The notes under the pieces are model-generated. The model saw only the letters and a program-made list of their open reading frames with translations. It searched no databases and had not been told where the DNA came from. Source: Candidatus Dojkabacteria bacterium (GTDB lineage: Bacteria; Patescibacteriota; Dojkabacteria; J137). From it: 64,000 bases of DNA. The DNA lies in contig JAUZRK010000025.1 of NCBI GenBank assembly GCA_030950485.1, forward strand, positions 8,236 to 72,235, written 5' to 3'. The stretch's first letter is position 1. The number at the start of each line of letters is the position of its first letter. Below are positions 4,634 through 16,629 of this stretch, piece after piece. Both the position numbers and the translations under genes were made by a program.

Positions 4634-6034
4634 ATGTTATCAGATAAAAAGAATAAAATAGTTTGTACAATTGGTCCATCAAGTTGGGTACCGGAAGTTA
4701 TGGAGAAAATGATTGATGCCGGTATGAACTGTGCAAGATATAACGGTGCGTTCGCGGACTGGGATTCATTAGAGAAGGTAACTAAGTTGGTACGAGACTT
4801 AGATAGTAAAGTTGCTTTAATGATAGATGTTAAAGGTCCTCAGATTAGAATGAATAATTTTGCTGAGGCAGTTGAAGTTAAAATCGGAGACGAATTTGTT
4901 ATTGGTTCTAAAGCTGAACATGGTGTTTTTACAGAGACTTACCCTGATTTATATAAATACCTTAAGCCAGGGCAGAAACTTCTATTAGGTGATGGTGACA
5001 CTGAGCTTGAAATTGTTGAAATAAAAGACAGTAAAATGTTTACTAAAGTTACTTTTGGAACTAAAGTAAAACCAGGTAAAGGAATAACAGCTCCTGGAGC
5101 TGAGTATCCTACTGTAGTATTAACTGAGAAAGATAAAGAAAATATCGAGAATTGTAAAAAATTAGGTTGGGATTTTGTTTCAGCTTCTTTTATAAGAAAT
5201 GCTAAGGATGCCCTAGAAGTGAAAGAAGTTATAGATGGCGAAATGCAATTAATTGCAAAGATTGAGAATGAAGAAGGAGTTGAGAATATAAAGGAAATTG
5301 TTGATGAAGTTGACGGAATTATGATTGGTAGAGGTGATCTTGGTTTACAACTAGGTTTGGAGAGAGTTCCAATGGTTCAAAGAATTGCTGTTGCAGCTTG
5401 TAACGAAATGAGTAAGCCAGTAATTACAGCAACTCAAATGCTAGAGTCTATGATCGAGGCTCCTAAACCAACAAGAGGTGAAGCTAATGACGTTGCTACA
5501 GCAATTTTAATGGGTACAGACTGTACTATGTTGTCAGCAGAAACTACTACAGGAAAATATCCTGTTGAAGCAGTTAGTTTTATGACTAAAATTTCTTACG
5601 AAATTGAAAAGTACAATATGCCTCAGATTATTGACAGTGATTCAAATCATTCAGTAGTAGCTGAAGCATTAACTAAAGCTGGTGCGGAATTATGTATAAA
5701 TTTAGGTGATGAAATAAAAGCTATCATTTGTGTTACTTCAACTGGAAATATGGCTAGATTACTTAGTAGACATTCACTAGATCAGAATATGTATGCTTTT
5801 GTTGAAAATGAAAAAGTTATGAGACAGTTAGCTCTTACTAAAGGAGTTAATGAAGCATTCTTATTTGAAGGACTAGGAGATAAAAGCTCAGATAGAGATG
5901 TCAGTGTTGAAGTTGTAAGAGAAAAAGTAAAAGAATTAGGACTAGCAAAAGAAGGAGAGAAAATTTTCTTAATTTCTAAATCACATGAAGGATCTACATT
6001 CTTTACAGGTGTATTTGAAGTTGTAACTATATAA
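4634..6034 (+). CDS. pyk: pyruvate kinase
   Basis: KIVCTIGPSS N-terminus, MIDVKGPQIR, MIGRGDLG motifs; ORF opens at 4610 but conserved N-terminus starts at ATG 4634. Confidence 0.9.
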   Translation: MLSDKKNKIVCTIGPSSWVPEVMEKMIDAGMNCARYNGAFADWDSLEKVTKLVRDLDSKVALMIDVKGPQIRMNNFAEAVEVKIGDEFVIGSKAEHGVFTETYPDLYKYLKPGQKLLLGDGDTELEIVEIKDSKMFTKVTFGTKVKPGKGITAPGAEYPTVVLTEKDKENIENCKKLGWDFVSASFIRNAKDALEVKEVIDGEMQLIAKIENEEGVENIKEIVDEVDGIMIGRGDLGLQLGLERVPMVQRIAVAACNEMSKPVITATQMLESMIEAPKPTRGEANDVATAILMGTDCTMLSAETTTGKYPVEAVSFMTKISYEIEKYNMPQIIDSDSNHSVVAEALTKAGAELCINLGDEIKAIICVTSTGNMARLLSRHSLDQNMYAFVENEKVMRQLALTKGVNEAFLFEGLGDKSSDRDVSVEVVREKVKELGLAKEGEKIFLISKSHEGSTFFTGVFEVVTI

Positions 6035-6048
6035 ACTTTTTTGATTTC

Positions 6049-6080
6049 AAAAAGAGACAGGTTATAACCTGTCTCTTTTT
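6049..6080. terminator. bidirectional Rho-independent terminator between pyk and convergent LysR remnant
   Basis: AAAAAGAGACAGGT-TATA-ACCTGTCTCTTTTT perfect 10-bp stem flanked by A-run and T-run. Confidence 0.7.
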
Positions 6081-6086
6081 CTTTAT

Positions 6087-6937
6087 TCATCGAATTGATT
6101 CTTTAAGTTCTGTAATAAACTTTTCTACTTTTTTAGGTATATAGGCTCCATGTCTTTTTACTAAGACCATTTCTCTAGTAATACTAATATCAACTACTTT
6201 AATTTGATCGCTATCAAATTCTCTTACTGTTTCAATTGGCAGTACACTAAAAGCAATATTTTTTTCGAGTAATTTTAAGGTCACATAGGGGGATGATGAA
6301 TTAATTACTCTTTTTCTAATTTTGAATTTATATGCTTGAAACTATTAGATGAGTAATTGTAAGTAATTGCTAAGTGGTCTTCTAGATCGATAAGATTTTT
6401 ATATTTAATTTTCTTATTAAGAACAAGGCAAAGTTTTTCTTCAATGAACTTTTCTATATGAAAGTTTTTTTCTAAAGCTGAGTAATCAAACGGTTTTGTA
6501 GTAATTGCAGCATCAATTAAGTTTGAACTTATCATTTGTAATAAGTTCGTAGTTGTATCAACATGTATAATTAGATCACTTTCTTTATTAGATAGTTCAT
6601 TTAAGTTGAATAACTGACAGTTTGCTGCAAAGTTTGCAATACTATCAATTAGCCCGATTCTAAAGCTAGACTTTAAGTTGGCTGAGATATCGCTAACTTC
6701 ATTCAACAAATTTTGATAATTAGATTCTACCTTTTTAAATTTATCGTAAATTAATTTACCAGCCTCTGTAAGCTCGAACTTTGTTCTCTTTTTGATTATC
6801 AGTTTTAATCCAAGATATTTTTCTAAGTCATTAATAGACATAGAAATAGCTGGCTGTGATATATGTAGTTTCTTAGCAGCTTTAGTATAAGATTTTTCTT
6901 CTACTACTTTTAAATATTTCTATAAATTATCAAACAT
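6087..6937 (-). pseudogene. LysR-family transcriptional regulator, disrupted (in-frame TAG at codon 6 plus break separating C-terminal 65 aa)
   Basis: Minus-strand translation from ATG 6937 gives MFDNL*KYLKVVEEKSYTKAAKKLHISQPAIS (LysR HTH) with TAG at 6920-6922 where conserved Leu is expected; substrate-binding domain in ORF 6305-6841; C-terminal LysR tail in separate ORF 6087-6284. Confidence 0.75.
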
Positions 6938-7030
6938 AAGTAAAGGTTATTTATATATAAATACTATTTAATTTACTTATGATCATAACATAGCAATAAT
7001 CGTTAGTAATTAAATTCTTATATTTAAATA

Positions 7031-7954
7031 ATGAGTAATGACAAAATAAAAATTGCAATTGTCGGTTTAGGCAACTGTGCTTCATCATTAATCCAAGGTA
7101 TTGAATACTATAAAGATGCTAAGGATGATGAATTTATTCCAGGATTAATGCATACAAACTTTGGAGGATATCATATAAAAGATATTGAAGTTGTTTCAGC
7201 ATTTGATGTAAATTCTAATAAAGTAGGTAAAGATATCTCTGAAGCGATTTACGCTGAGCCAAACTGCACTACTATTTTTTCTCAAGTTCCAAAAAAAGGA
7301 GTTAAAGTTTCTATGGGACATAGACTTGATGGTGTTAATAAATATACTGAAGATGTAGTTCCAGTTTCTGACATGCCTGAAGTAGATGTGGTTAAAGTTC
7401 TTAAAGATTCAGGTGCTGAAATTTTAGTAAATTATCTTCCAGTTGGAAGTGAGATAGCAGCCAGATTTTATGCTCAAGCAGCAATTGATGCTGGTTGTGG
7501 TATGGTTAACTGTATTCCTGTATTTTTAGCTTCAACTAAAGAATGGTCAGATAAATTCGAAAAGGCTGGTTTACCAATTATCGGAGATGATATTAAATCA
7601 CAGGTTGGAGCCACTATTGTTCATAGAACTCTTACAAATCTGTACCTAGATAGAGGAATGAAGATACTTAAAACGTATCAACTAAATACTGGAGGTAATA
7701 CAGATTTCATGAACATGCTTGAAAGAGAACGACTTGAAAGTAAGAAGATTTCTAAGACTGAAGCAGTAACTTCAATTATCGAAGGACATAGAGATACTAT
7801 AGATCCAGAGAATGTTCATGTAGGGCCATCTGATTTTGTACCTTGGCAGAAAGACAATAAACTATGTTTCATTAGAATAGAAAGTAAACATTTCGGAGAT
7901 GTACCAACTTATATGGATGTTACTAAAAAAGTACTAGGTTTTTGTGTACTATGA
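7031..7954 (+). CDS. ino1: myo-inositol-1-phosphate synthase (bacterial/archaeal type), apparently C-terminally truncated by about 55 aa
   Basis: [50 protein letters not shown] match Ino1 closely; ORF ends about 20 aa after FGDVP whereas homologues continue about 75 aa; no continuation in other frames. Confidence 0.8.
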
Positions 7955-8316
7955 ACTACTGCTCCCTGTGTTGCTGCAATAAGCTCTAATGGCGTACATG
8001 TAAAACTATCTCCATTTATTCCATTAGGTGTATAGTAGGTTATCTTTCTAGCCTTATCCATTGGAACAATACCAGGCTCTCCTTCTCCTTCCAAAAGAAG
8101 ATCAGTGAAAATCTCAGATATTGTATCGCTATTGTAGGTACCTTGCGTTGCTGAACTTAGTTGTCCCTCTTTTTCTGTTACTTCTACTAAACTGTACTTC
8201 TCAACTAATGCATCATGAAATGAGGTAACCATACTTTGTAAAGTATTTCCTAACTGAGCTCCGTTTTGTTGTTCTAAATTAGTCTCTGTCTCTAATGCTC
8301 GTGATACTGGTGCCAT
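7909..8316 (-). CDS. hypothetical protein (convergent, overlaps 3' end of ino1 by 46 nt; may be spurious)
   Basis: 135-aa ORF, no recognised motif. Confidence 0.3.
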
Positions 8317-8435: not shown

Positions 8436-9539
8436 ATGAAAAAAATAATAGTTTTATTCTCTATATTAATACTAGGCGCTATTTCTTTAACACCTGCTTA
8501 TGCTCAGGATTCTAATATTCCTGGCGTTGCGGCAACAATCAAAGAGGTGAATGAATTTGAAGATAATGGAATTAGCTACTATAGAATTACACTCGAACTT
8601 GAAGGAGAGGATGTAATAAGTATAATCCCAAAAGATAGTTTGATATATACGCTAGATTATAAAGAAGGAGATAAGGTTAAGGTCAATGAAAGAACTATGG
8701 ATGGTGAAACTATCTACGATATAACTGATTTTAGAAGAACAGACTCGATTTTAATCTTATTTATACTTTTTATACTTATTACAGTATTAATAGGAAAATT
8801 AAAAGGTGGCCTATCATTATTTGGCCTTGGTATTTCTTTTGCAGTAATATTTTATTATATCTTGCCTGAAATATTAGATGGTAAAAACCCAGTGATAGTT
8901 GTAATCTTAGCCTCATTATTAATTATTCCAGTCAACTATTACATTGCACATGGATTTAATTACAAAAGTACTTACGCAGTTGTTAGTACATTAATCACAT
9001 TGATTATTACAGGATTTTTATCTACTTTCTTCGTCAGTTTTTCAAAGCTAAGTGGATTTGCTTCAGATGAAGCACGTGATCTAGTGAATCAAACATTTGG
9101 TGGAGTAAATATACAAAATATTTTACTAGCAAGTATAATAATTGGTCTCCTTGGAATTCTGGATGACATTACTATTTCACAAGCAAGTATAGCTGAACAA
9201 TTAAAGCTTACTAATAAGAAGATTGAATTTAAAGAATTATATTTTAGAACTCTTGAAGTTGGTAAAGACCATATAGCCTCTTTAGTAAATACTCTGATTT
9301 TAGTCTATACAAGTGCATCTCTACCACTTTTACTATTGGTATACAAAAACTATGATGGATTTATAAATACTATTAATGATGAGATGTTAGCAGAAGAAAT
9401 AGTTCAAATGTTGTTAGCAAGTATAAGTCTAATTCTTGCAGTTCCAATTAGCACTTTTATATCATGCTATTTTATAGATAGAAAAGATTGGTATAGCAAA
9501 AATAAAAATTTGGATAATGAGCATTTTCATTCTCATTAA
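8436..9539 (+). CDS. YibE/F-like multi-pass membrane protein with N-terminal signal peptide
   Basis: 367 aa; signal peptide ...AYAQD, soluble N-domain then 6-7 TM helices; overall architecture resembles YibE/F family. Confidence 0.5.
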   Translation: MKKIIVLFSILILGAISLTPAYAQDSNIPGVAATIKEVNEFEDNGISYYRITLELEGEDVISIIPKDSLIYTLDYKEGDKVKVNERTMDGETIYDITDFRRTDSILILFILFILITVLIGKLKGGLSLFGLGISFAVIFYYILPEILDGKNPVIVVILASLLIIPVNYYIAHGFNYKSTYAVVSTLITLIITGFLSTFFVSFSKLSGFASDEARDLVNQTFGGVNIQNILLASIIIGLLGILDDITISQASIAEQLKLTNKKIEFKELYFRTLEVGKDHIASLVNTLILVYTSASLPLLLLVYKNYDGFINTINDEMLAEEIVQMLLASISLILAVPISTFISCYFIDRKDWYSKNKNLDNEHFHSH

Positions 9540-9567
9540 TTTAAACAAATCAAGAAGTATTTTTTAA

Positions 9568-10356
9568 TTACTTTCTAAAAAGTTTTTTTTGTATTTCCTC
9601 CATAGCTTTTGTTCTTCTAAGACCGTTATCTTCTACTTTATTAAGATACCCCTCATATATTTGATTAATTCCATTTTCATCAGGATCTACCCATTCTTGA
9701 TCTTGAAGTGGCTTTTTCTGATCTTTTATAATAATTTCCCCAAATCTCATACCGTTATCCTTACCATAGTGTTCAGCTGAACAACCATACTCGATCTCTT
9801 TAGTTATTCCTTCTTCTCTTATTACCTTAGTAACAAGCAATACATGGTGAGAGTTTTTTCTTTTCCACTTAGATCTAACTAAATCACCTGGTAAGACATC
9901 TTTCAATGAAACTTTTTTAGAATTAGTTTTATTAGTAATTATCTCCGCACCTAGTTTTTCTACAGGTTTAAGAATATAAGCTATTTTATATAGAATGCCT
10001 TTTCCATATGGTTTGAATTTTCGCCATATATTACCTCCCTTTTCACTCTTATACCAAAAATTTAAAATATGCATTATAAAACCAGAACAATCTATTCCAA
10101 TACCTCTAGACATTAGAAATTCTCTTATTTCATTTTCAGTCATCTCATCAAGATTCATCTTTTTTGTTTTAGCAACAATCATAGCTTCCATTTCAATTTC
10201 CTCAGGAGTTCCTTTACCTACAAGAGCTCTTAAATCCTTAGATTTTTTTAAATTCATGTAGTATGGGCTTTTTACGTGAGTTTTTCCGATTTTTAGCTCA
10301 AAATAGTCATTTATCCTATTAGATATATTTTCAGGTAGTTTTAGTACTTCTTCCAT
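9568..10356 (-). CDS. NlpC/P60-family papain-like cysteine peptidase/amidase
   Basis: GIDCSGFIMHIL (catalytic Cys), PGDLVRS, HHVLLV (His) motifs; start ATG overlaps stop of upstream ATP-grasp gene (TGATG). Confidence 0.6.
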   Translation of the reverse strand: MEEVLKLPENISNRINDYFELKIGKTHVKSPYYMNLKKSKDLRALVGKGTPEEIEMEAMIVAKTKKMNLDEMTENEIREFLMSRGIGIDCSGFIMHILNFWYKSEKGGNIWRKFKPYGKGILYKIAYILKPVEKLGAEIITNKTNSKKVSLKDVLPGDLVRSKWKRKNSHHVLLVTKVIREEGITKEIEYGCSAEHYGKDNGMRFGEIIIKDQKKPLQDQEWVDPDENGINQIYEGYLNKVEDNGLRRTKAMEEIQKKLFRK

Positions 10357-11711
10357 CAGTCTTTTAATTCTTTTATAAAATTAAGTATATCATCTCTTAC
10401 TTTCCCTTCAGTAATAACTGAATCCTTTATTTGGACTCTAAGTATCTCTTCATATTTACTCTTAGTAGAACCTTTTTTTTGCGAACTAAGCATTAATTCA
10501 CTATTAGATTCAATATCTTTTATAGAGTACCCTTCTCTCACCCAATTATATGATGATTTACTAGCATTGTAATTATAAATACCAGATTTGTTATTATTCT
10601 TTACTACATAATTATCTTCAAAAGATCGTAAAAATACTTGAGCACCTTTTATATTAGGAACATGTTTATAATTACTAGCATATTCATCTATGTTTATCCC
10701 TAAAGCTAAAGCTAAGTTCAACATGTTTTGTGTTGGTTGCTCTATCTGGTCATTTTCCAAATAAGTCTGAAATGGAATATTTGCAGTTTGTCTTGCATTT
10801 ACTTCAATAATGTATATTGAATTTGAATCTAATATAAGATCTATTCCAAACAGTCCCTGATATCCAATTTTATTTAGTTCATTTGCTAATTTATCAGACA
10901 CCATTAAAATTGAATGCTTGATCTGTGTAGGTAATTCTGGCCCACTTATAAAATCATTACCAACTGTTGAATATAAACCTGGTGTTAATTCTCTTATTCC
11001 TGTAATTTGATATTGAATTGGACCTATAAAATTCTCATTTTTTCCAACTACAACATTTAAAGTAAATGTATCTCCGTTTATAACTTTAGAAAATTTTACT
11101 TGATTTCCACCTAATTTCTCTCTTAGTAAGTTGTATTGATCTTCATTTTTAATTAAATGAGTTCCAGAGCCAGTATGCCCCCTATCCTCTTGAATAACAA
11201 ATTCAGAACCAAAGCTATCATCTAAATCAGTGTATTCTACTTCGTCTATTCTAGTTATTAATGATGGTATTTTATTTATTCTTTTCTCTTTTAAGAAGTC
11301 ATCAAACCAGAATTTATTTTCGATATTCTTACAAATTTCAGGATCATTATTAATATATGTACCACCTAATTTCTCAATTTTAAATTTAGATACTGACGAT
11401 GGGAAAAATATTTGTCCATAAAATCCATTATCATTTGTAGTAGACTTAATCCATTCAATTACTAAGTTATGTGAAAGGAGTTTTGAAGTTGATGAAATAT
11501 CTAAACTACCAGATTCTGCTTCTAAACTAAAGATTGAAATTCCTTTAGATTTTAATGATCTATAGTAATAATCATCTTGAATACAACAAATGTGATAGTT
11601 TTCTAGCTCATCTTCTAAACCTAATGCTCTCTCAGCTTCTCTTGTAAAGAAAATTAAAGGTTTACTTTTTAATTCAGTGTTTATATTTTTTAGTAAAGTA
11701 TTTTTATCCAT
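10356..11711 (-). CDS. ATP-grasp superfamily carboxylate-amine ligase
   Basis: 451 aa; GHTGSGTHLI P-loop-like region and GLFGIDLILDSNSIYIIEVNARQT ATP-grasp C-terminal motif. Confidence 0.65.
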   Translation of the reverse strand: MDKNTLLKNINTELKSKPLIFFTREAERALGLEDELENYHICCIQDDYYYRSLKSKGISIFSLEAESGSLDISSTSKLLSHNLVIEWIKSTTNDNGFYGQIFFPSSVSKFKIEKLGGTYINNDPEICKNIENKFWFDDFLKEKRINKIPSLITRIDEVEYTDLDDSFGSEFVIQEDRGHTGSGTHLIKNEDQYNLLREKLGGNQVKFSKVINGDTFTLNVVVGKNENFIGPIQYQITGIRELTPGLYSTVGNDFISGPELPTQIKHSILMVSDKLANELNKIGYQGLFGIDLILDSNSIYIIEVNARQTANIPFQTYLENDQIEQPTQNMLNLALALGINIDEYASNYKHVPNIKGAQVFLRSFEDNYVVKNNNKSGIYNYNASKSSYNWVREGYSIKDIESNSELMLSSQKKGSTKSKYEEILRVQIKDSVITEGKVRDDILNFIKELKD

Positions 11712-11714
11712 CTT

Positions 11715-12239
11715 TTATTTTTTAATCTTATAGATATGAAATCTCTTGTAAGATTTATCAGGTTCAATATTTTTGAACTTAAAAGTATTAGTTAAGATAA
11801 TACTACCGTTTTTCATTTCTTCAAATAGTTTATCTTTAAGCTTATCCATATGCGTATTATAGATGTACATATAAACTATATCGTATTCTCCAAAGTTTTC
11901 TTTATAAAAGCTTTTATTCTTTATCTTTGCATTCTTAAGTCTGTATATAAAAATCTTTATTTTAGTAAAAAAGGTTAAAAAGGGATTCAATTCTATTCCA
12001 GTTGATTTCATTCCCATTCTCGCAGCCCATACAACTACTCTTCCATCTCCAGAACCTAGATCTACAAAATTTGTTGATTTAGTTACTTCTAAACCTAATT
12101 TTTGAAAAGCTTCTTTTAAGTGTTTAACTCTTGAAGGATAAAAAGGTGTTGAAAATAATAATGAATAAATATGATATCCTCCTAAAACTATCCAAAGAAT
12201 TGTTAAGTAAGAAACTATTGCTATAGCTAGTGTTCCCAT
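11715..12239 (-). CDS. class I SAM-dependent methyltransferase with N-terminal transmembrane anchor
   Basis: 174 aa; N-terminal hydrophobic helix; motif I VDLGSGDGRVV. Confidence 0.6.
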   Translation of the reverse strand: MGTLAIAIVSYLTILWIVLGGYHIYSLLFSTPFYPSRVKHLKEAFQKLGLEVTKSTNFVDLGSGDGRVVVWAARMGMKSTGIELNPFLTFFTKIKIFIYRLKNAKIKNKSFYKENFGEYDIVYMYIYNTHMDKLKDKLFEEMKNGSIILTNTFKFKNIEPDKSYKRFHIYKIKK

Positions 12240-12240
12240 A

Positions 12241-13167
12241 TTATCGTCCTGATGTTATACAAATTATATTAGTATTATTTAAGCTCTCTCTCATTCTTAG
12301 ATATCCTGCTATAGATAGTAAAGAAGTATATGAGAGATCTTCTATGTTATTAGAAGTCATAAATTCACTTGATTTTTTAAGCTCTTCATTAGTTATTGCT
12401 AGTACTTCTCCATTAGTTTGTCTTATAATTTTTTCAATTTGAGGTTTTCGCAAAAGTGATTTATCTACAATTGCATCTGCAAGTGAATCTTCAGTATTAC
12501 CAACATTCTGAACTAGTGGATGGCATTTTGTTGTCTGACACGCTACAAACCTAGGCATAGATACCTCAGTTTCAAGTTTGAAAAATAAGCCTCCTGCAAT
12601 ACCTACAAATGTACTTCCAGAAGAAACTTGAGCGAAAATGATCCAATTCTCATTCTTCTTATATTTAATTAGATCATATAACTCAAACCCTAGACTCCAA
12701 TATCCATATAATATATCCTCATCAATTGAAGATTTTAATAATGTTGCCTTATTTTCATTAGCAATTCTTACAGCAGCTCTTTTAGCTTTTGTATCATATA
12801 TTATTTTATGGACTGTACCCTCAAGTAAAGTTTCTAATTTTTCTTTCTTTTTATTATTTAAATTTGGAGATACAGCAATAATAACTTTGAAATTATCTAC
12901 AAGCTTAGAGTACTCCAACAAGCTTATTGCAGCATTACCGGATGAGGCAATAACAACTTCACTTATACCTTGTTGTTTTAATTTAGATATTTTAAATGCT
13001 GTTCCTCTATCTTTCCATGATCCTGTTGGATTTAAATCCTCTCTTTTTATAAAAAGTTTATTGTTTCCATCACTAAACTGAGAAACAGGAGTATTACCTT
13101 CATTTAGGCTAATTCTATTACTTTCTTGAGTAATATGTTTTTTTATTTCTTTATATTTCCAAATCAC
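12241..13167 (-). CDS. threonine synthase-like PLP-dependent enzyme (fold type II)
   Basis: 308 aa; EGNTPV and NPTGSWKDRG (PLP-lysine) signatures of ThrC/cysteate-synthase-like enzymes. Confidence 0.7.
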   Translation of the reverse strand: MIWKYKEIKKHITQESNRISLNEGNTPVSQFSDGNNKLFIKREDLNPTGSWKDRGTAFKISKLKQQGISEVVIASSGNAAISLLEYSKLVDNFKVIIAVSPNLNNKKKEKLETLLEGTVHKIIYDTKAKRAAVRIANENKATLLKSSIDEDILYGYWSLGFELYDLIKYKKNENWIIFAQVSSGSTFVGIAGGLFFKLETEVSMPRFVACQTTKCHPLVQNVGNTEDSLADAIVDKSLLRKPQIEKIIRQTNGEVLAITNEELKKSSEFMTSNNIEDLSYTSLLSIAGYLRMRESLNNTNIICITSGR

Positions 13168-13274
13168 AGCTAAATTATTTAACTAAATAGATTATAAACG
13201 AGTTTGAGATATTTTACATAAAATATGAATATGTTATATTTATATTAGAGAATTAAAATTTAAAAATAAATTAA

Positions 13275-13544
13275 ATGATTACAAATCAAAAACAATTAGA
13301 TGAAAACTGGATTCTAGTTTCTTCTGATAAAGACTTTACATGTGACGAGTGTGGTAATGAAGTAGATTTAAAGATAAGTAGTATTGAGGGTTTGGTTGAT
13401 GCAGATTTTACAAAAATAAAATCTGATTTAGAAGCTTTTCCGACTAAAATTATATACGGAGTTTGCCCAATTTGCGGAATGGAATATGTATTCCATTTAG
13501 TAGACGGCAATCTATACGTAGAGCCAAGTCAAGAAGAGAAATAA
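13275..13544 (+). CDS. small zinc-ribbon protein
   Basis: 89 aa with CDECG...CPICG paired CxxC motifs. Confidence 0.45.
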   Translation: MITNQKQLDENWILVSSDKDFTCDECGNEVDLKISSIEGLVDADFTKIKSDLEAFPTKIIYGVCPICGMEYVFHLVDGNLYVEPSQEEK

Positions 13545-13807: not shown

Positions 13808-14527
13808 TTACTTACACCTAGGATCTGGATATCTATTAATATTGTCGTTTATCATGTAAATAAGATAAGCTTTATTATCTTTTAGATCTGATCTAGAAAT
13901 ATCAAATTCTTTCAATATATCAATTTCTTTGTCTTCGACTTTAAATTTTATACTTTCCTCGTTCAACGGATACACTTTTAAGTTAGCATCATAAACATAC
14001 TTATAGCTATCATTATCAATCTCATTTTCTACAGCTGAACTGAACGAAGTTAAAAGCTCGTTACTAATAGCTTCTATTGGTTTTTCCGAATTTATTTGTA
14101 TTATTTTAGCTGCAAGAAAATCACAACCATTGTAAATCTCCTCTTCTACTTTAAAAGTATCTATCTCTTTAGCTTCTTTAAATTCTCCTGCTGGTGCTTT
14201 TTCTGCTTCTTCTTTCTTTTTTCTAGCTTCCTCTGCGTCTTGGATTCTCTTTTCTTCTCTTTTATTATTATCTATAATATTTCCTATTAGGTAGAAGTTA
14301 TTTCCAATTTCCTCAGCATCCTCTGGTAATTTTATGTCTTCAAATACCTCTTTAAAATGATCATATTCATTATTACTTAGAAAATAAGGTATTGGGAAAC
14401 CGAAAAGGAAAGACGTAAGTGCTAAAGGCTTTATTATCAAAAAGGGTATAAGCACTAAAAAAGTAAGTACTTTTGGATTGTATAATTTTCTTATTTTGTT
14501 TCTATCAATTTTCATTTTTCCATTCAT
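13808..14527 (-). CDS. hypothetical membrane-anchored protein with KE-rich low-complexity region
   Basis: 239-aa ORF, N-terminal TM segment; overlaps pth start by 23 nt. Confidence 0.4.
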   Translation of the reverse strand: MNGKMKIDRNKIRKLYNPKVLTFLVLIPFLIIKPLALTSFLFGFPIPYFLSNNEYDHFKEVFEDIKLPEDAEEIGNNFYLIGNIIDNNKREEKRIQDAEEARKKKEEAEKAPAGEFKEAKEIDTFKVEEEIYNGCDFLAAKIIQINSEKPIEAISNELLTSFSSAVENEIDNDSYKYVYDANLKVYPLNEESIKFKVEDKEIDILKEFDISRSDLKDNKAYLIYMINDNINRYPDPRCK

Positions 14528-15543: not shown

Positions 15544-16629
15544 TCACTCTCTTAGAGGGTGATTTTCTCTATGTGATTTCTCTGCAAATTTATCAGATGC
15601 ATGTACGTATCTTGAGGTTGTTTGTAATGATGAATGACCTAATAATCTTTGAATTGCTGCTGGATTTGCACCTTCTTCTGCAATGTATGTTGCGAACCCA
15701 TGCCTTAAGCTATGAGCACTTGTTGGTAGAATTATCCCAATTCTCTTCCTATAATCAGCAATTTTCATCTGTATATAGTTTTGAGAAAGTCTTACTATGT
15801 AAGGATTTTCTGTAGCTCTTCTTGTACCTTTATTGGGAATGAACATTGCTGGATATTCATCTTTTCGTGTATCTAAATATTCCTGTAAATAATGAATTGA
15901 TCTATCAGTTAAATAAACAAATCTCTCTTTCTTTCCTTTACCTTGGATATACATTTTATTATCAGCAATCTTTCCATCAATTATTTTTATTTTATCTCTA
16001 TCTAGATTAACTGCTTCCGATATTCTCATACCAGTTGAAAAAATGAGTTCTAAAATTGCTCTATTTCTTTTCTTTACTTTTACGTTTGACTCAAAGTCAG
16101 TAGGAAATTCAATTAGCCTAATTAAATCTTCAAGTTCAGCTACTTGTTTTTCTTTTTTTTCTGTTTTTATCATTTTTATAGCATTTGCAGGAATTGGACC
16201 AGGTTTATCTATATCTTCTAGAAACGTTAAGTAAGATCTAAGTGCTGACAGCATTCTATTTACACTATTATCTGATAGCTGACCTTTATACATAGCTCTT
16301 TTTTTCTCAGATATATCATTTTTTGCTTTATCTATAGTTTCCTGACTTAAATCTTCTCCTTTATTATAAGAGTGAAGAATTGGAATATAGTTTATATCTC
16401 TTAAAAAACCTTTATATTCTATTATATCTACCTTTTCAATCTCATCGAAAGTTTTTTCAATGTAATACAAAAAAGAAGAAAAGATCTCTAAGTCTCTAGA
16501 ATAGTTTTTAAGTGTTTGTCTAGAATAGTTATCATTCTTTAAATTTAGAAGATACTGCCTTAAGTTTGGCAATGAATATTTCATTACAATTTTGCTACTT
16601 TTTTTTGTGTCTTCTCTGATTACATCCAT
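15544..16629 (-). CDS. tyrosine site-specific recombinase, XerC/XerD-like
   Basis: N-terminal SAM-like domain; C-terminal HSLRHGFATY...LLGHSSLQTTSRYVH with catalytic R..H..R..Y arrangement. Confidence 0.8.
   Translation of the reverse strand: MDVIREDTKKSSKIVMKYSLPNLRQYLLNLKNDNYSRQTLKNYSRDLEIFSSFLYYIEKTFDEIEKVDIIEYKGFLRDINYIPILHSYNKGEDLSQETIDKAKNDISEKKRAMYKGQLSDNSVNRMLSALRSYLTFLEDIDKPGPIPANAIKMIKTEKKEKQVAELEDLIRLIEFPTDFESNVKVKKRNRAILELIFSTGMRISEAVNLDRDKIKIIDGKIADNKMYIQGKGKKERFVYLTDRSIHYLQEYLDTRKDEYPAMFIPNKGTRRATENPYIVRLSQNYIQMKIADYRKRIGIILPTSAHSLRHGFATYIAEEGANPAAIQRLLGHSSLQTTSRYVHASDKFAEKSHRENHPLRE

Follow-up and report, generated by a model that had tools for sequence, protein, structure and literature searches.

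In the LysW/LysX pathways of Thermus and archaea, as well as in their variants in the secondary metabolism of Streptomyces, the carrier is LysW, a small acidic zinc-ribbon protein whose canonical tail reads EDWGE; the γ-carboxylate of the terminal Glu is the attachment point, which the ATP-grasp ligase LysX joins to the amine of the substrate. In glutathionylspermidine synthetase/amidase (GspSA), a carboxylate-amine ligase is coupled by fusion to a Cys amidase of the papain superfamily, able to undo an amide to a primary alkyl amine, while in the Aslfm D-aspartate ligase and aspartate racemase pair of enterococci and lactococci, and in the VanT/VanC/VanXY set, an ATP-grasp ligase and an enzyme for an unusual amino acid serve the synthesis of peptidoglycan precursors, a peptidase also being present in the latter. 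The present work concerns a locus which combines traits of these systems, found in a 64-kb stretch of DNA (64,000 nucleotides, the whole of what was analysed; hereafter, the window) of Candidatus Dojkabacteria (contig JAUZRK010000025.1, positions 8,236 to 72,235): four closely packed minus-strand genes and a divergent fifth gene, encoding a LysW-like protein. These five genes probably form one module, specific to the Patescibacteria and linked to peptidoglycan precursor synthesis, in which the small protein is proposed, by analogy with LysW, to be a carrier or scaffold with its terminal Lys as the reaction site. The genes and their immediate surroundings, in coordinates of the window, are as follows.

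13275..13544, plus strand: LysW-like zinc-ribbon protein, 89 aa, pI 4.2, two CxxC knuckles, tail ...VEPSQEEK
13168..13274, no strand: divergent AT-rich intergenic spacer of 107 bp, separating the LysW-like gene from the gene of the pyridoxal phosphate (PLP) enzyme
12241..13167, minus strand: ThrC-like fold-type II PLP enzyme, 308 aa, GTG start, motif NPTGSWKDRG
11715..12239, minus strand: S-adenosylmethionine-dependent methyltransferase with an N-terminal transmembrane helix, 174 aa; accessory component
10356..11711, minus strand: ATP-grasp carboxylate-amine ligase, 451 aa; ATP-grasp_3
9568..10356, minus strand: divergent papain/NlpC-P60-like Cys-His hydrolase, 262 aa
8436..9539, plus strand: YibE/F protein (Pfam/NCBIfam), convergent flank

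The four minus-strand genes (9568-13167) are intact, and the tight packing from which an earlier reading, made from the sequence alone (hereafter, the sequence-only reading), had deduced an operon was verified at each junction: TAA-T-ATG (1 nt), TAA-AAG-ATG (3 nt) and TGATG (1 nt overlap). The 107-bp spacer is presumed to be the shared promoter region of the LysW-like and PLP genes; it holds a promoter-like match at 13213-13240 (plus strand), such matches being no commoner than in shuffled sequence, and the scan for promoters and terminators gave nothing beyond the shuffled expectation. Searches of the window and of eight representative loci against Rfam revealed no riboswitch or leader, tRNAs being the sole matches.

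The distribution of the module was followed starting from the ligase, whose small family comprises at least 38 clusters in a collection of 5.8 billion proteins (the 8000 candidates sharing most words having been scored); a scan of one genome per species returned at least 256 ligase relatives, and 80 loci were kept for analysis. Nearly all of these bear the titles of metagenome-assembled genomes (MAGs) of Patescibacteria (Dojkabacteria, Magasanikbacteria, Paceibacterota, Uhrbacteria and Taylorbacteria), some machine-labelled MAGs carrying, as labelled, the titles "Saccharibacteria" or "Gammaproteobacteria". Gene presence was then counted by tblastn with the window proteins over 81 distinct loci. 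The hydrolase is present in 74 of the 81; in 66 it lies immediately downstream of the ligase on the same strand and in 6 more within 5.5 kb, in agreement with the claim of the sequence-only reading that the four genes are a functional unit. Of the 38 loci whose flanks are complete, 37 have the hydrolase and 29 the PLP gene; the latter is adjacent and upstream in Dojkabacteria-like loci, and 4-6 kb downstream in other classes. Homologues of the methyltransferase occur in 21 of the 81 loci and in more than one class, where the gene either separates the PLP gene from the ligase gene or follows that of the hydrolase (L070, L082), so that the methyltransferase belongs to the module in part of the lineages.

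The neighbourhood comparison thus shows the same genes recurring together in dozens of other genomes; the idea of a self-contained pathway of four genes has nevertheless to be revised, since the zinc-ribbon gene, which the sequence-only reading had taken as a divergently transcribed boundary, is a conserved fifth component, found beside the PLP gene in 46 of 50 loci. Chance juxtaposition of housekeeping genes, namely a true threonine synthase, a methyltransferase of rRNA or protein, a generic ligase and a cell-wall hydrolase, would be compatible with the fact that each of these domain families is common, with "threonine synthase" and "biotin carboxylase" as the best names that the databases offer. 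This explanation is extremely improbable in view of the synteny kept across several Patescibacteria classes, of scores far under the equivalog cut-offs and of the loss of the NSVNPxRxEGQK segment conserved in the three ThrC structures aligned (see below); in particular, it is practically ruled out by the occurrence of ligase-hydrolase fusions. Likewise, the outcome that the earlier reading had named as its own refutation, genes never co-localised or a housekeeping ThrC with Ddl, is not what was found: the synteny is conserved, the PLP enzyme is without that segment and scores far under the ThrC cut-off, and the ligase bears no Ddl signature. In the literature searched, an incomplete library, there was no description of the module, nor was a LysW-like protein found described for Patescibacteria or in connection with peptidoglycan.

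The LysW-like gene was recognised by seeking small open reading frames (ORFs) with two CxxC motifs in the 50 loci which contain the PLP gene. The 46 ORFs adjoining it lie typically 25-240 nt from the start of the PLP gene and are usually divergent from it, which makes the small gene the most constant partner of the PLP gene; in the arrangement represented by L014, L015 and L031 it is also directly upstream of, and co-directional with, the ligase-hydrolase pair. The products of those small genes which are divergent from or adjacent to the PLP gene have Lys as last residue. The family includes a short form which matches the Pfam family Zn_ribbon_LysW (PF21344) with 31.5 bits, above the gathering threshold of 27, and the LysW/ArgW models of NCBIfam below their cut-offs; the best matches in the Protein Data Bank (PDB) to a profile of 18 short forms are the LysW proteins of T. 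thermophilus (3wwl, E 9.7e-8) and T. kodakarensis (5k2m, E 3e-6), the profile alignment stopping at LysW residue 48 of 54, short of the final six residues. The window protein represents a longer subtype, with an insert of about 20 residues between the zinc knuckles; by hhalign, the window-type and short families match with a probability of 97.1% (E 6.7e-11), and are aligned through the terminal Lys. Judging from these profiles, the small protein is a LysW homologue, and the module thus has in common with the LysW/LysX systems an acidic zinc ribbon, of about 54 residues, whose gene lies together with those for an ATP-grasp ligase, for modifying enzymes and for a potential releasing hydrolase in what would be an amino-acid-related pathway.

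The main difference lies in the tail. Among the 18 aligned sequences the only invariant positions are the four Cys, one Gly and the terminal Lys (18 of 18), with a Glu at position -3 nearly invariant; a profile search returned 1372 LysW-like clusters at 90% identity, and all of the top 120 database homologues listed end in Lys (106 in VDEGK, 5 in IEEEK, the remainder in close variants). The module proteins end in VDEGK, IEEEK or EEK, whereas LysW ends in EDWGE. Both LysW and its homologues here are acidic, the latter having a median pI of 4.3; net charge was considered as a discriminator within the module and discarded, because the PLP enzyme, methyltransferase and hydrolase are basic but the ligase is acidic too. 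Three neighbourhoods seeded independently from LysW-like proteins show the same arrangement, with the small gene divergent from the PLP gene and next to the hydrolase gene and an ATP-grasp gene in the position of the ligase: the Magasanikbacteria-type L088/L089 and the JGI contig 3300056388, which also hold MraY, MurC-like ligase, MurB or MurD-like genes, and L090, with a compact order PLP gene, ligase, hydrolase and MraY about 4 kb off.

The ligase apparently constitutes a Patescibacteria-specific family of its own. It matches Pfam ATP-grasp_3 with 42.3 bits, and its best NCBIfam model is a "biotin carboxylase" (PRK06524, 90 bits against a cut-off of 684). Invariant residues include D291 and E303, N305 and R307 of an EINARQ motif, together with an HTGxGT loop; since these fit the usual Mg/ATP site of ATP-grasp enzymes, the protein should be catalytically active. 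Its AlphaFold2 model (pLDDT 92.3) has as nearest solved folds biotin carboxylase, PurK, PurD and PurT (E ~1e-16, TM-score 0.55-0.6, 10-14% identity), carbamoyl-phosphate synthetase also being among its relatives by sequence and fold; Ddl, LysX and RimK are absent from the top 50 structural matches, and the profile search agrees. Indeed, the RimK family model TIGR00768 matches only in part (28.7 bits; cut-off 143), tubulin-tyrosine ligase (TTL) matches the family profile at E ~0.15, and PDB sequence searches with single proteins and with family profiles gave no informative relatives for either ligase or hydrolase. Enzymes of the biotin carboxylase/PurK/PurD/PurT group activate small carboxylates, which they then transfer to an amine or a ureido group, and biotin carboxylase acts on a group tethered to a lysine of a small carrier protein, the biotin carboxyl carrier protein BCCP. 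The likeness to this group extends to both folds and sequence models; it differs in the low identity and in that no biotinyl domain, carboxyltransferase partner or purine context is present here. In some Magasanikbacteria-type loci the ligase carries a C-terminal NUDIX domain (Pfam, 48 bits; L050 7926-9623, L088 14122-15765). A separate NUDIX gene adjoins the LysW-like gene in L088 (9216-9767).

These affinities bear on the possibility that the module supplies the stem terminus in the manner of the Van or Ddl enzymes, the PLP enzyme being a racemase, the ATP-grasp enzyme a D-aminoacyl-D-aminoacid ligase whose product goes to MurF, and the hydrolase a dipeptidase, that is to say a constitutive parallel of the VanT/VanC/VanXY logic. 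The same three kinds of enzyme (PLP enzyme, ATP-grasp ligase, peptidase) are indeed present, the neighbourhood is dcw-like, and a search with the E. coli proteins DdlB, MurI, Alr, MurE and MurF in 83 loci of about 17 kb and in the window returned no Ddl or MurI, the absence covering these loci and not whole genomes; an Alr homologue is found in L022, and MurE/MurF in L025 and L028 only. The ligase, however, has no Pfam match to Dala_Dala_lig_N/C at E<=0.01, the family profile reaches Ddl (3r23) only at E 0.03, Ddl is absent from the top 50 folds, and both the LysW-like protein and the methyltransferase would be left unexplained, so that this role is improbable. More generally, the module has in common with the Asl and Van systems the pairing of ligase and amino-acid enzyme, and differs from them, and from Ddl, in a ligase without specific homology to theirs, in a PLP enzyme of the ThrC-like fold-type II and in the presence of the LysW-like protein.

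The hydrolase appears to be a new and very divergent branch of the papain/NlpC-P60 superfamily. The label of NlpC/P60 amidase given to it in the sequence-only reading holds for the catalytic residues, C90 (in GIDCSG) and H171 being invariant across 29 homologues and the Cys motif matching LytE, Spr and MepS locally; it holds less well for the family assignment, the match to Pfam NLPC_P60 (PF00877; 19 bits, E 1.4e-3) lying under the gathering score of 23 and the Foldseek neighbours of the AlphaFold2 model (pLDDT 93.3) being weak (IdeS/Mac-1, E 4.6e-3; a Thermus NlpC/P60 protein, E 0.14). The homologues also share a conserved N-terminal segment, PY.IN...DLRA.VGKGTPEE. Because no obvious N-terminal hydrophobic export signal is visible in its sequence, the hydrolase is probably cytoplasmic.

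Fusions of ligase and hydrolase occur in three of the loci (L040, 690 aa; L045, 709 aa; L079, 628 aa). A search of 1.84 billion representatives (50% identity clusters) with the hydrolase profile gave 719 matches at E<=1e-3 and 522 at E<=1e-10; among the top 150 representatives, 19 (about 13%) are fusions of 615-739 aa with the ligase N-terminal and the hydrolase C-terminal, each checked by blastp. The resemblance to GspSA suggested in the sequence-only reading is thereby borne out at the level of architecture, in that a carboxylate-amine ligase is coupled, and at times fused, to a papain-superfamily Cys amidase; the order of the domains is reversed with respect to the amidase-first GspSA, no Pfam match to GSP_synth or to the CHAP amidase is found, a protein partner and a PLP enzyme are added, and polyamines or thiols are not known to be involved. 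Such a pairing is also the usual layout of two-component amidotransferases, in which, as in MurT/GatD or CarB/CarA, the Cys hydrolase would be a glutaminase and the ATP-grasp enzyme would amidate a carboxylate of the stem peptide. The kinship of the ligase with carbamoyl-phosphate synthetase and biotin carboxylase and the cell-wall context suit this role; it is nonetheless very improbable, there being no homology of the hydrolase to known glutaminase domains and no task left for the PLP enzyme, the LysW-like protein and the methyltransferase.

The PLP enzyme matches Pfam PALP with 130.7 bits, and its best NCBIfam match is threonine synthase PRK08329, with 131.4 bits against a cut-off of 358 (TIGR00260: 58.7 against 167); the best PDB sequence matches are likewise ThrC structures (6cgq, 2zsj and 1uim). 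The ThrC-type lysine motif (NPTGSWKDRG, residues 46-55, the PLP lysine being conserved in at least 90% of 50 orthologues) and the SSGN loop are kept. The segment NSVNPxRxEGQK, conserved in all three ThrC structures aligned, and whose Ser and Arg we take to bind the substrate phosphate in T. thermophilus ThrC, aligns instead to KSSIDEDILYGYW in the window enzyme, the family consensus at this position being LR.S.D..A..GY; the 50 orthologues have conserved motifs of their own. Identification as a true threonine synthase was rejected on the basis of this replacement and of scores far under the equivalog cut-offs; because the segment is replaced, the enzyme probably does not use O-phosphohomoserine either. 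A β- or γ-replacement, as proposed for it in the sequence-only reading, is a conjecture, as is the order of making, methylating, ligating and trimming proposed there.

The methyltransferase seems to resemble the archaeal protein-lysine N-methyltransferases: it matches Pfam DOT1 with 28 bits, an NCBIfam model of archaeal protein-lysine N-methyltransferase at E 7e-9 (NF041081: 35.9 bits, cut-off 200) and, in the PDB, 5bxy, 5fa8 (9e-8) and 5jwj (1.1e-6). It differs from the archaeal enzyme aKMT, which is without one, in its N-terminal transmembrane helix; the anchor, already noted in the sequence-only reading, recurs in the family, all 19 full-length homologues printed beginning with a hydrophobic stretch, after which comes a motif of the type P[FY][YFV]P[ST].

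The kinship with lysine methyltransferases, taken together with the tail of the small protein, raises the possibility of a C-terminal lysine cycle on a scaffold protein, similar to tubulin tyrosination or to the pearlin pathways. The encoded terminal Lys would itself be the substrate, modified by the methyltransferase and by the PLP enzyme with the ε-amine as nucleophile, then clipped off by the Cys peptidase and re-added by the ATP-grasp enzyme. The invariance of the Lys and the near invariance of the Glu at -3 argue for such a cycle, as does the opposition of a ligase and a peptidase, often fused, which would suit a recharge. It is distinctly unlikely all the same: the nearest folds of the ligase are biotin carboxylase, PurK and PurD, TTL matching at the marginal E value given above, and to our knowledge the ATP-grasp enzymes which extend a C-terminus (RimK, TTL) belong to other clades, nor do we know of any ThrC-like enzyme that takes a lysine of a protein as its nucleophile. 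The scaffold-peptide pathways of the pearlin and mycofactocin types share with the module a small encoded protein whose last residue is invariant and whose gene adjoins those of modifying enzymes and of a peptidase; they are distinguished by their PEARL/LanB-like or radical-SAM enzymes, absent here, where an ATP-grasp ligase and a folded zinc ribbon of the LysW family are found.

The link to the cell wall comes from gene order. At least one of the genes murB, mraY, murC/mpl-like and murD-like is present in 49 of the 81 loci, so that, among the outcomes considered in the sequence-only reading, that of a cell-wall modification fits the repeated placement of the module. Outside the Dojkabacteria the order is murB (opposite strand), ligase, hydrolase, mraY-like, ATE_C-like, sometimes a class-I methyltransferase, murC/mpl-like, LysW-like (opposite strand), PLP gene and murD-like (opposite strand), the LysW-like gene standing between two enzyme pairs. 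As to the identity of these neighbours, MurB_C is confirmed in the murB product and the MurD model gives 138 bits for the murD-like one (Pfam/NCBIfam), the MraY-like protein scores 181 bits with Glycos_transf_4/MraY (cut-off 192), and the Mur ligase matches MurC and Mpl equally, at 247 bits, each below its cut-off. A protein of 215-250 aa with an ATE_C match (Pfam, 27.6 bits, gathering threshold 25) lies between mraY and the murC/mpl-like gene in about 30 loci (e.g., L076 12511-13161 and L088 11274-12002), and in L052 (9799-11121) it is fused to a class-I methyltransferase; we take ATE_C, the arginyl/leucyl-tRNA protein transferase fold, to belong to the aminoacyl-tRNA transferase superfamily that includes the Fem enzymes. 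The label of class-I methyltransferase, first considered for the gene family in this position, was abandoned, 30 of its 35 members being ATE_C-like. In a JGI contig the order is FtsW and MurG, LysW-like, PLP gene, ligase, hydrolase, MraY, two FemAB and a Mur ligase, while L029 adds MurA and MurB.

In L029 the LysW-like, ATE-like, MurC-like, PLP, ligase, hydrolase, MraY, MurA and MurB genes all lie within about 12 kb and are co-directional save for one intervening unannotated ORF; a 661-aa DUF4185 protein (6009-7994) is inserted between the PLP gene and the ligase. In many loci of the Dojkabacteria type a tRNA-Gly(CCC), often with a tRNA-Thr(CGT), is found near the module: directly beside the LysW-like gene (L090 9165-9339, L024 6200-6273, L016 5965-6147), about 1 kb or less from it (L002, L013, L017), beside the methyltransferase or the PLP gene end (L014 6086-6160, L031 6389-6464) or about 1.2 kb beyond the methyltransferase (L015). 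The window has no tRNA-Gly(CCC) next to the operon. This proximity could be inherited synteny or, given the ATE_C/Fem-like genes, a hint of tRNA-dependent chemistry.

The same neighbourhood is the main argument for a system of the peptidoglycan side chain or cross-bridge whose direct substrate would be UDP-MurNAc-peptide or lipid II, after the manner of the Asl D-aspartate ligase. The PLP enzyme would then supply a D- or non-canonical amino acid and the ligase would add it to the stem peptide, for instance at the ε-amine of Lys; the Cys hydrolase would be the cognate endopeptidase or a proof-reader, the methyltransferase would modify a lipid-linked precursor, and the LysW-like protein would be a regulator, chaperone or decoy. 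Besides the position of the cluster amid murB, mraY, murC-like and murD-like genes with FemAB or ATE_C-like aminoacyl-transferase homologues adjoining, the fusions of the ligase to NUDIX suggest a substrate linked to a nucleotide diphosphate, the methyltransferase is membrane-anchored, like lipid I and II, and NlpC/P60 enzymes typically cut γ-D-Glu-diamino-acid bonds. Direct action would leave unexplained, however, why the PLP gene has as its steadiest neighbour a LysW homologue in which the terminal Lys is invariant and why a biosynthetic ligase is frequently fused to a hydrolase of its own product, and the hydrolase is without an obvious export signal; on balance we consider it rather unlikely.

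The reading preferred here is that the module acts, as we propose, at the cytoplasmic stage of peptidoglycan precursor synthesis and, tentatively, in a proposal that could well prove wrong, that it works as a carrier pathway of the LysW/LysX type with reversed polarity. If the small protein is a carrier, its C-terminal Lys, in the place of Glu, means that attachment must be reversed, the carrier contributing the amine and the substrate the carboxylate. The ATP-grasp ligase would first activate a small carboxylate (an amino acid is the likeliest) and with it acylate the ε-amine of the terminal Lys of the carrier; while so tethered, the amino acid would be altered by the PLP enzyme and, in lineages that have it, by the methyltransferase, racemisation and replacement of the side chain being examples; the Cys-His amidase would finally hydrolyse the N-ε-acyl-lysine bond, regenerating the carrier and delivering a product to the Mur ligases or to cross-bridge formation. 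As to this product, the obvious candidates, on speculation, are D-amino acids or unusual diamino acids destined for the stem peptide or the cross-bridge. The analogy with Gsp fits such a cycle, because an N-ε-acyl-lysine is the same kind of amide as the substrate of the Gsp amidase; the fusion of loader and unloader and the placing of the carrier gene between two enzyme pairs agree with it, and the fold group of the ligase (biotin carboxylase/PurK/PurD/PurT) and the presence of an enzyme similar to lysine methyltransferases count in its favour.

Several observations weigh against this carrier reading. The attachment of a substrate to the small protein is something that we infer, together with its site, the order of the steps and the product. 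The ligase is outside the LysX/RimK family, and its similarity to the biotin carboxylase group, at 10-14% identity, is generic within the ATP-grasp superfamily; no enzymes of the LysZ (kinase), LysY (reductase), LysJ (aminotransferase) or LysK (hydrolase) type are found among the annotated recurrent neighbours in the 81 loci, several of them named by eye, which are instead Mur ligases, MurB, MraY, ATE_C-like, Fic, Pth, DUF4015 and similar proteins. The most constant neighbour of the LysW-like gene is the PLP gene, not the ligase, and in L009, L012 and L036 the ligase occurs with neither a PLP nor a LysW-like gene nearby. A PLP enzyme needs a free α-amino group, which constrains how the substrate can be tethered, and the NUDIX fusions hint at a nucleotide-linked substrate, e.g. 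UDP-MurNAc-peptide, rather than a protein. Finally, mur, mraY and ATE-like proteins of the candidate phyla radiation (CPR) found no counterpart in the 64-kb window, and the closest relatives are likewise without mur genes within reach; for this genome the cell-wall link is thus one of orthology only.

In comparison with the described systems, the evidence of sequence and gene content indicates that the module is not a ThrC, a Ddl/Van or a GspSA system, and that its membership of the LysW/LysX group fails on the tail, on the ligase family (not of the LysX/ArgX, or RimK, type) and on the accompanying enzymes, which are a ThrC-like PLP enzyme, a papain-like amidase and the methyltransferase, in a mur/mraY neighbourhood and not among lysine or arginine genes.

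A Candidatus Dojkabacteria MAG has proteins 100% identical to the ligase and to the hydrolase of the window, and the closest public record, JAUZSD010000006.1 (locus L084), is 99.94% identical to the window across 20 kb. The two differ by 2 substitutions and by 10 indels of one or two bases each, several of the latter at short homopolymer runs; 9 of these 12 sites fall in 8445-11972, inside the YibE/F, ATP-grasp and methyltransferase genes, which are consequently broken in that record (methyltransferase 91+44 aa, ligase 404 aa, YibE/F 225+100 aa). Either an assembly error in the record or a near-identical strain would account for this; the window versions are treated here as the functional forms because they align with their homologues over the full length.

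Among the other genes of the surroundings, an inositol-3-phosphate synthase homologue (7031-7954, plus strand), which scores 412.8 bits with TIGR03450 (cut-off 638) and covers positions 1-294 of the 355 in that model, seems to be about 60 C-terminal residues short and is maybe truncated or frameshifted; an ORF at 7909-8316 (minus strand) overlaps it, and the 307-aa product is called alike in the public record. Between the peptidyl-tRNA hydrolase and LysW-like genes lies a gene (13808-14527, minus strand) for a 239-aa protein, hydrophobic in its N-terminal region and rich in Lys and Glu in the middle; it has no Pfam or NCBIfam match, and its homologues were found by tblastn solely in three of the closest relatives (L006-L008), which places it outside the conserved core. 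About 2 kb from the module, a tyrosine recombinase (15544-16629, minus strand), with a Phage_integrase domain in the annotation of the public record, may be a housekeeping gene of the XerC/D type.

The Patescibacteria (CPR) account for a large share of bacterial diversity and have tiny genomes with few biosynthetic pathways, and how they obtain special amino acids for their cell walls is poorly understood. Since such reduced genomes keep the module among mur genes, it is likely to be important for the synthesis of the envelope. The module would extend carrier-protein-mediated amino-acid chemistry and, if the reversed polarity is real, could prove categorically new; that it represents the first LysW-family carrier of reversed polarity, a "carboxyl-group carrier protein" supplying a peptidoglycan-specific building block (a D-amino acid or a non-canonical diamino acid) across the Patescibacteria, is a doubtful extension of the proposal. 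If the LysW homologue does act as a carrier through its terminal lysine, carrier-mediated amino-acid chemistry would reach past the Glu-terminated LysW type, and the module would offer a new pair of ligase and isopeptidase for study, besides an approach to the cell-wall chemistry of the CPR that can be tested directly.

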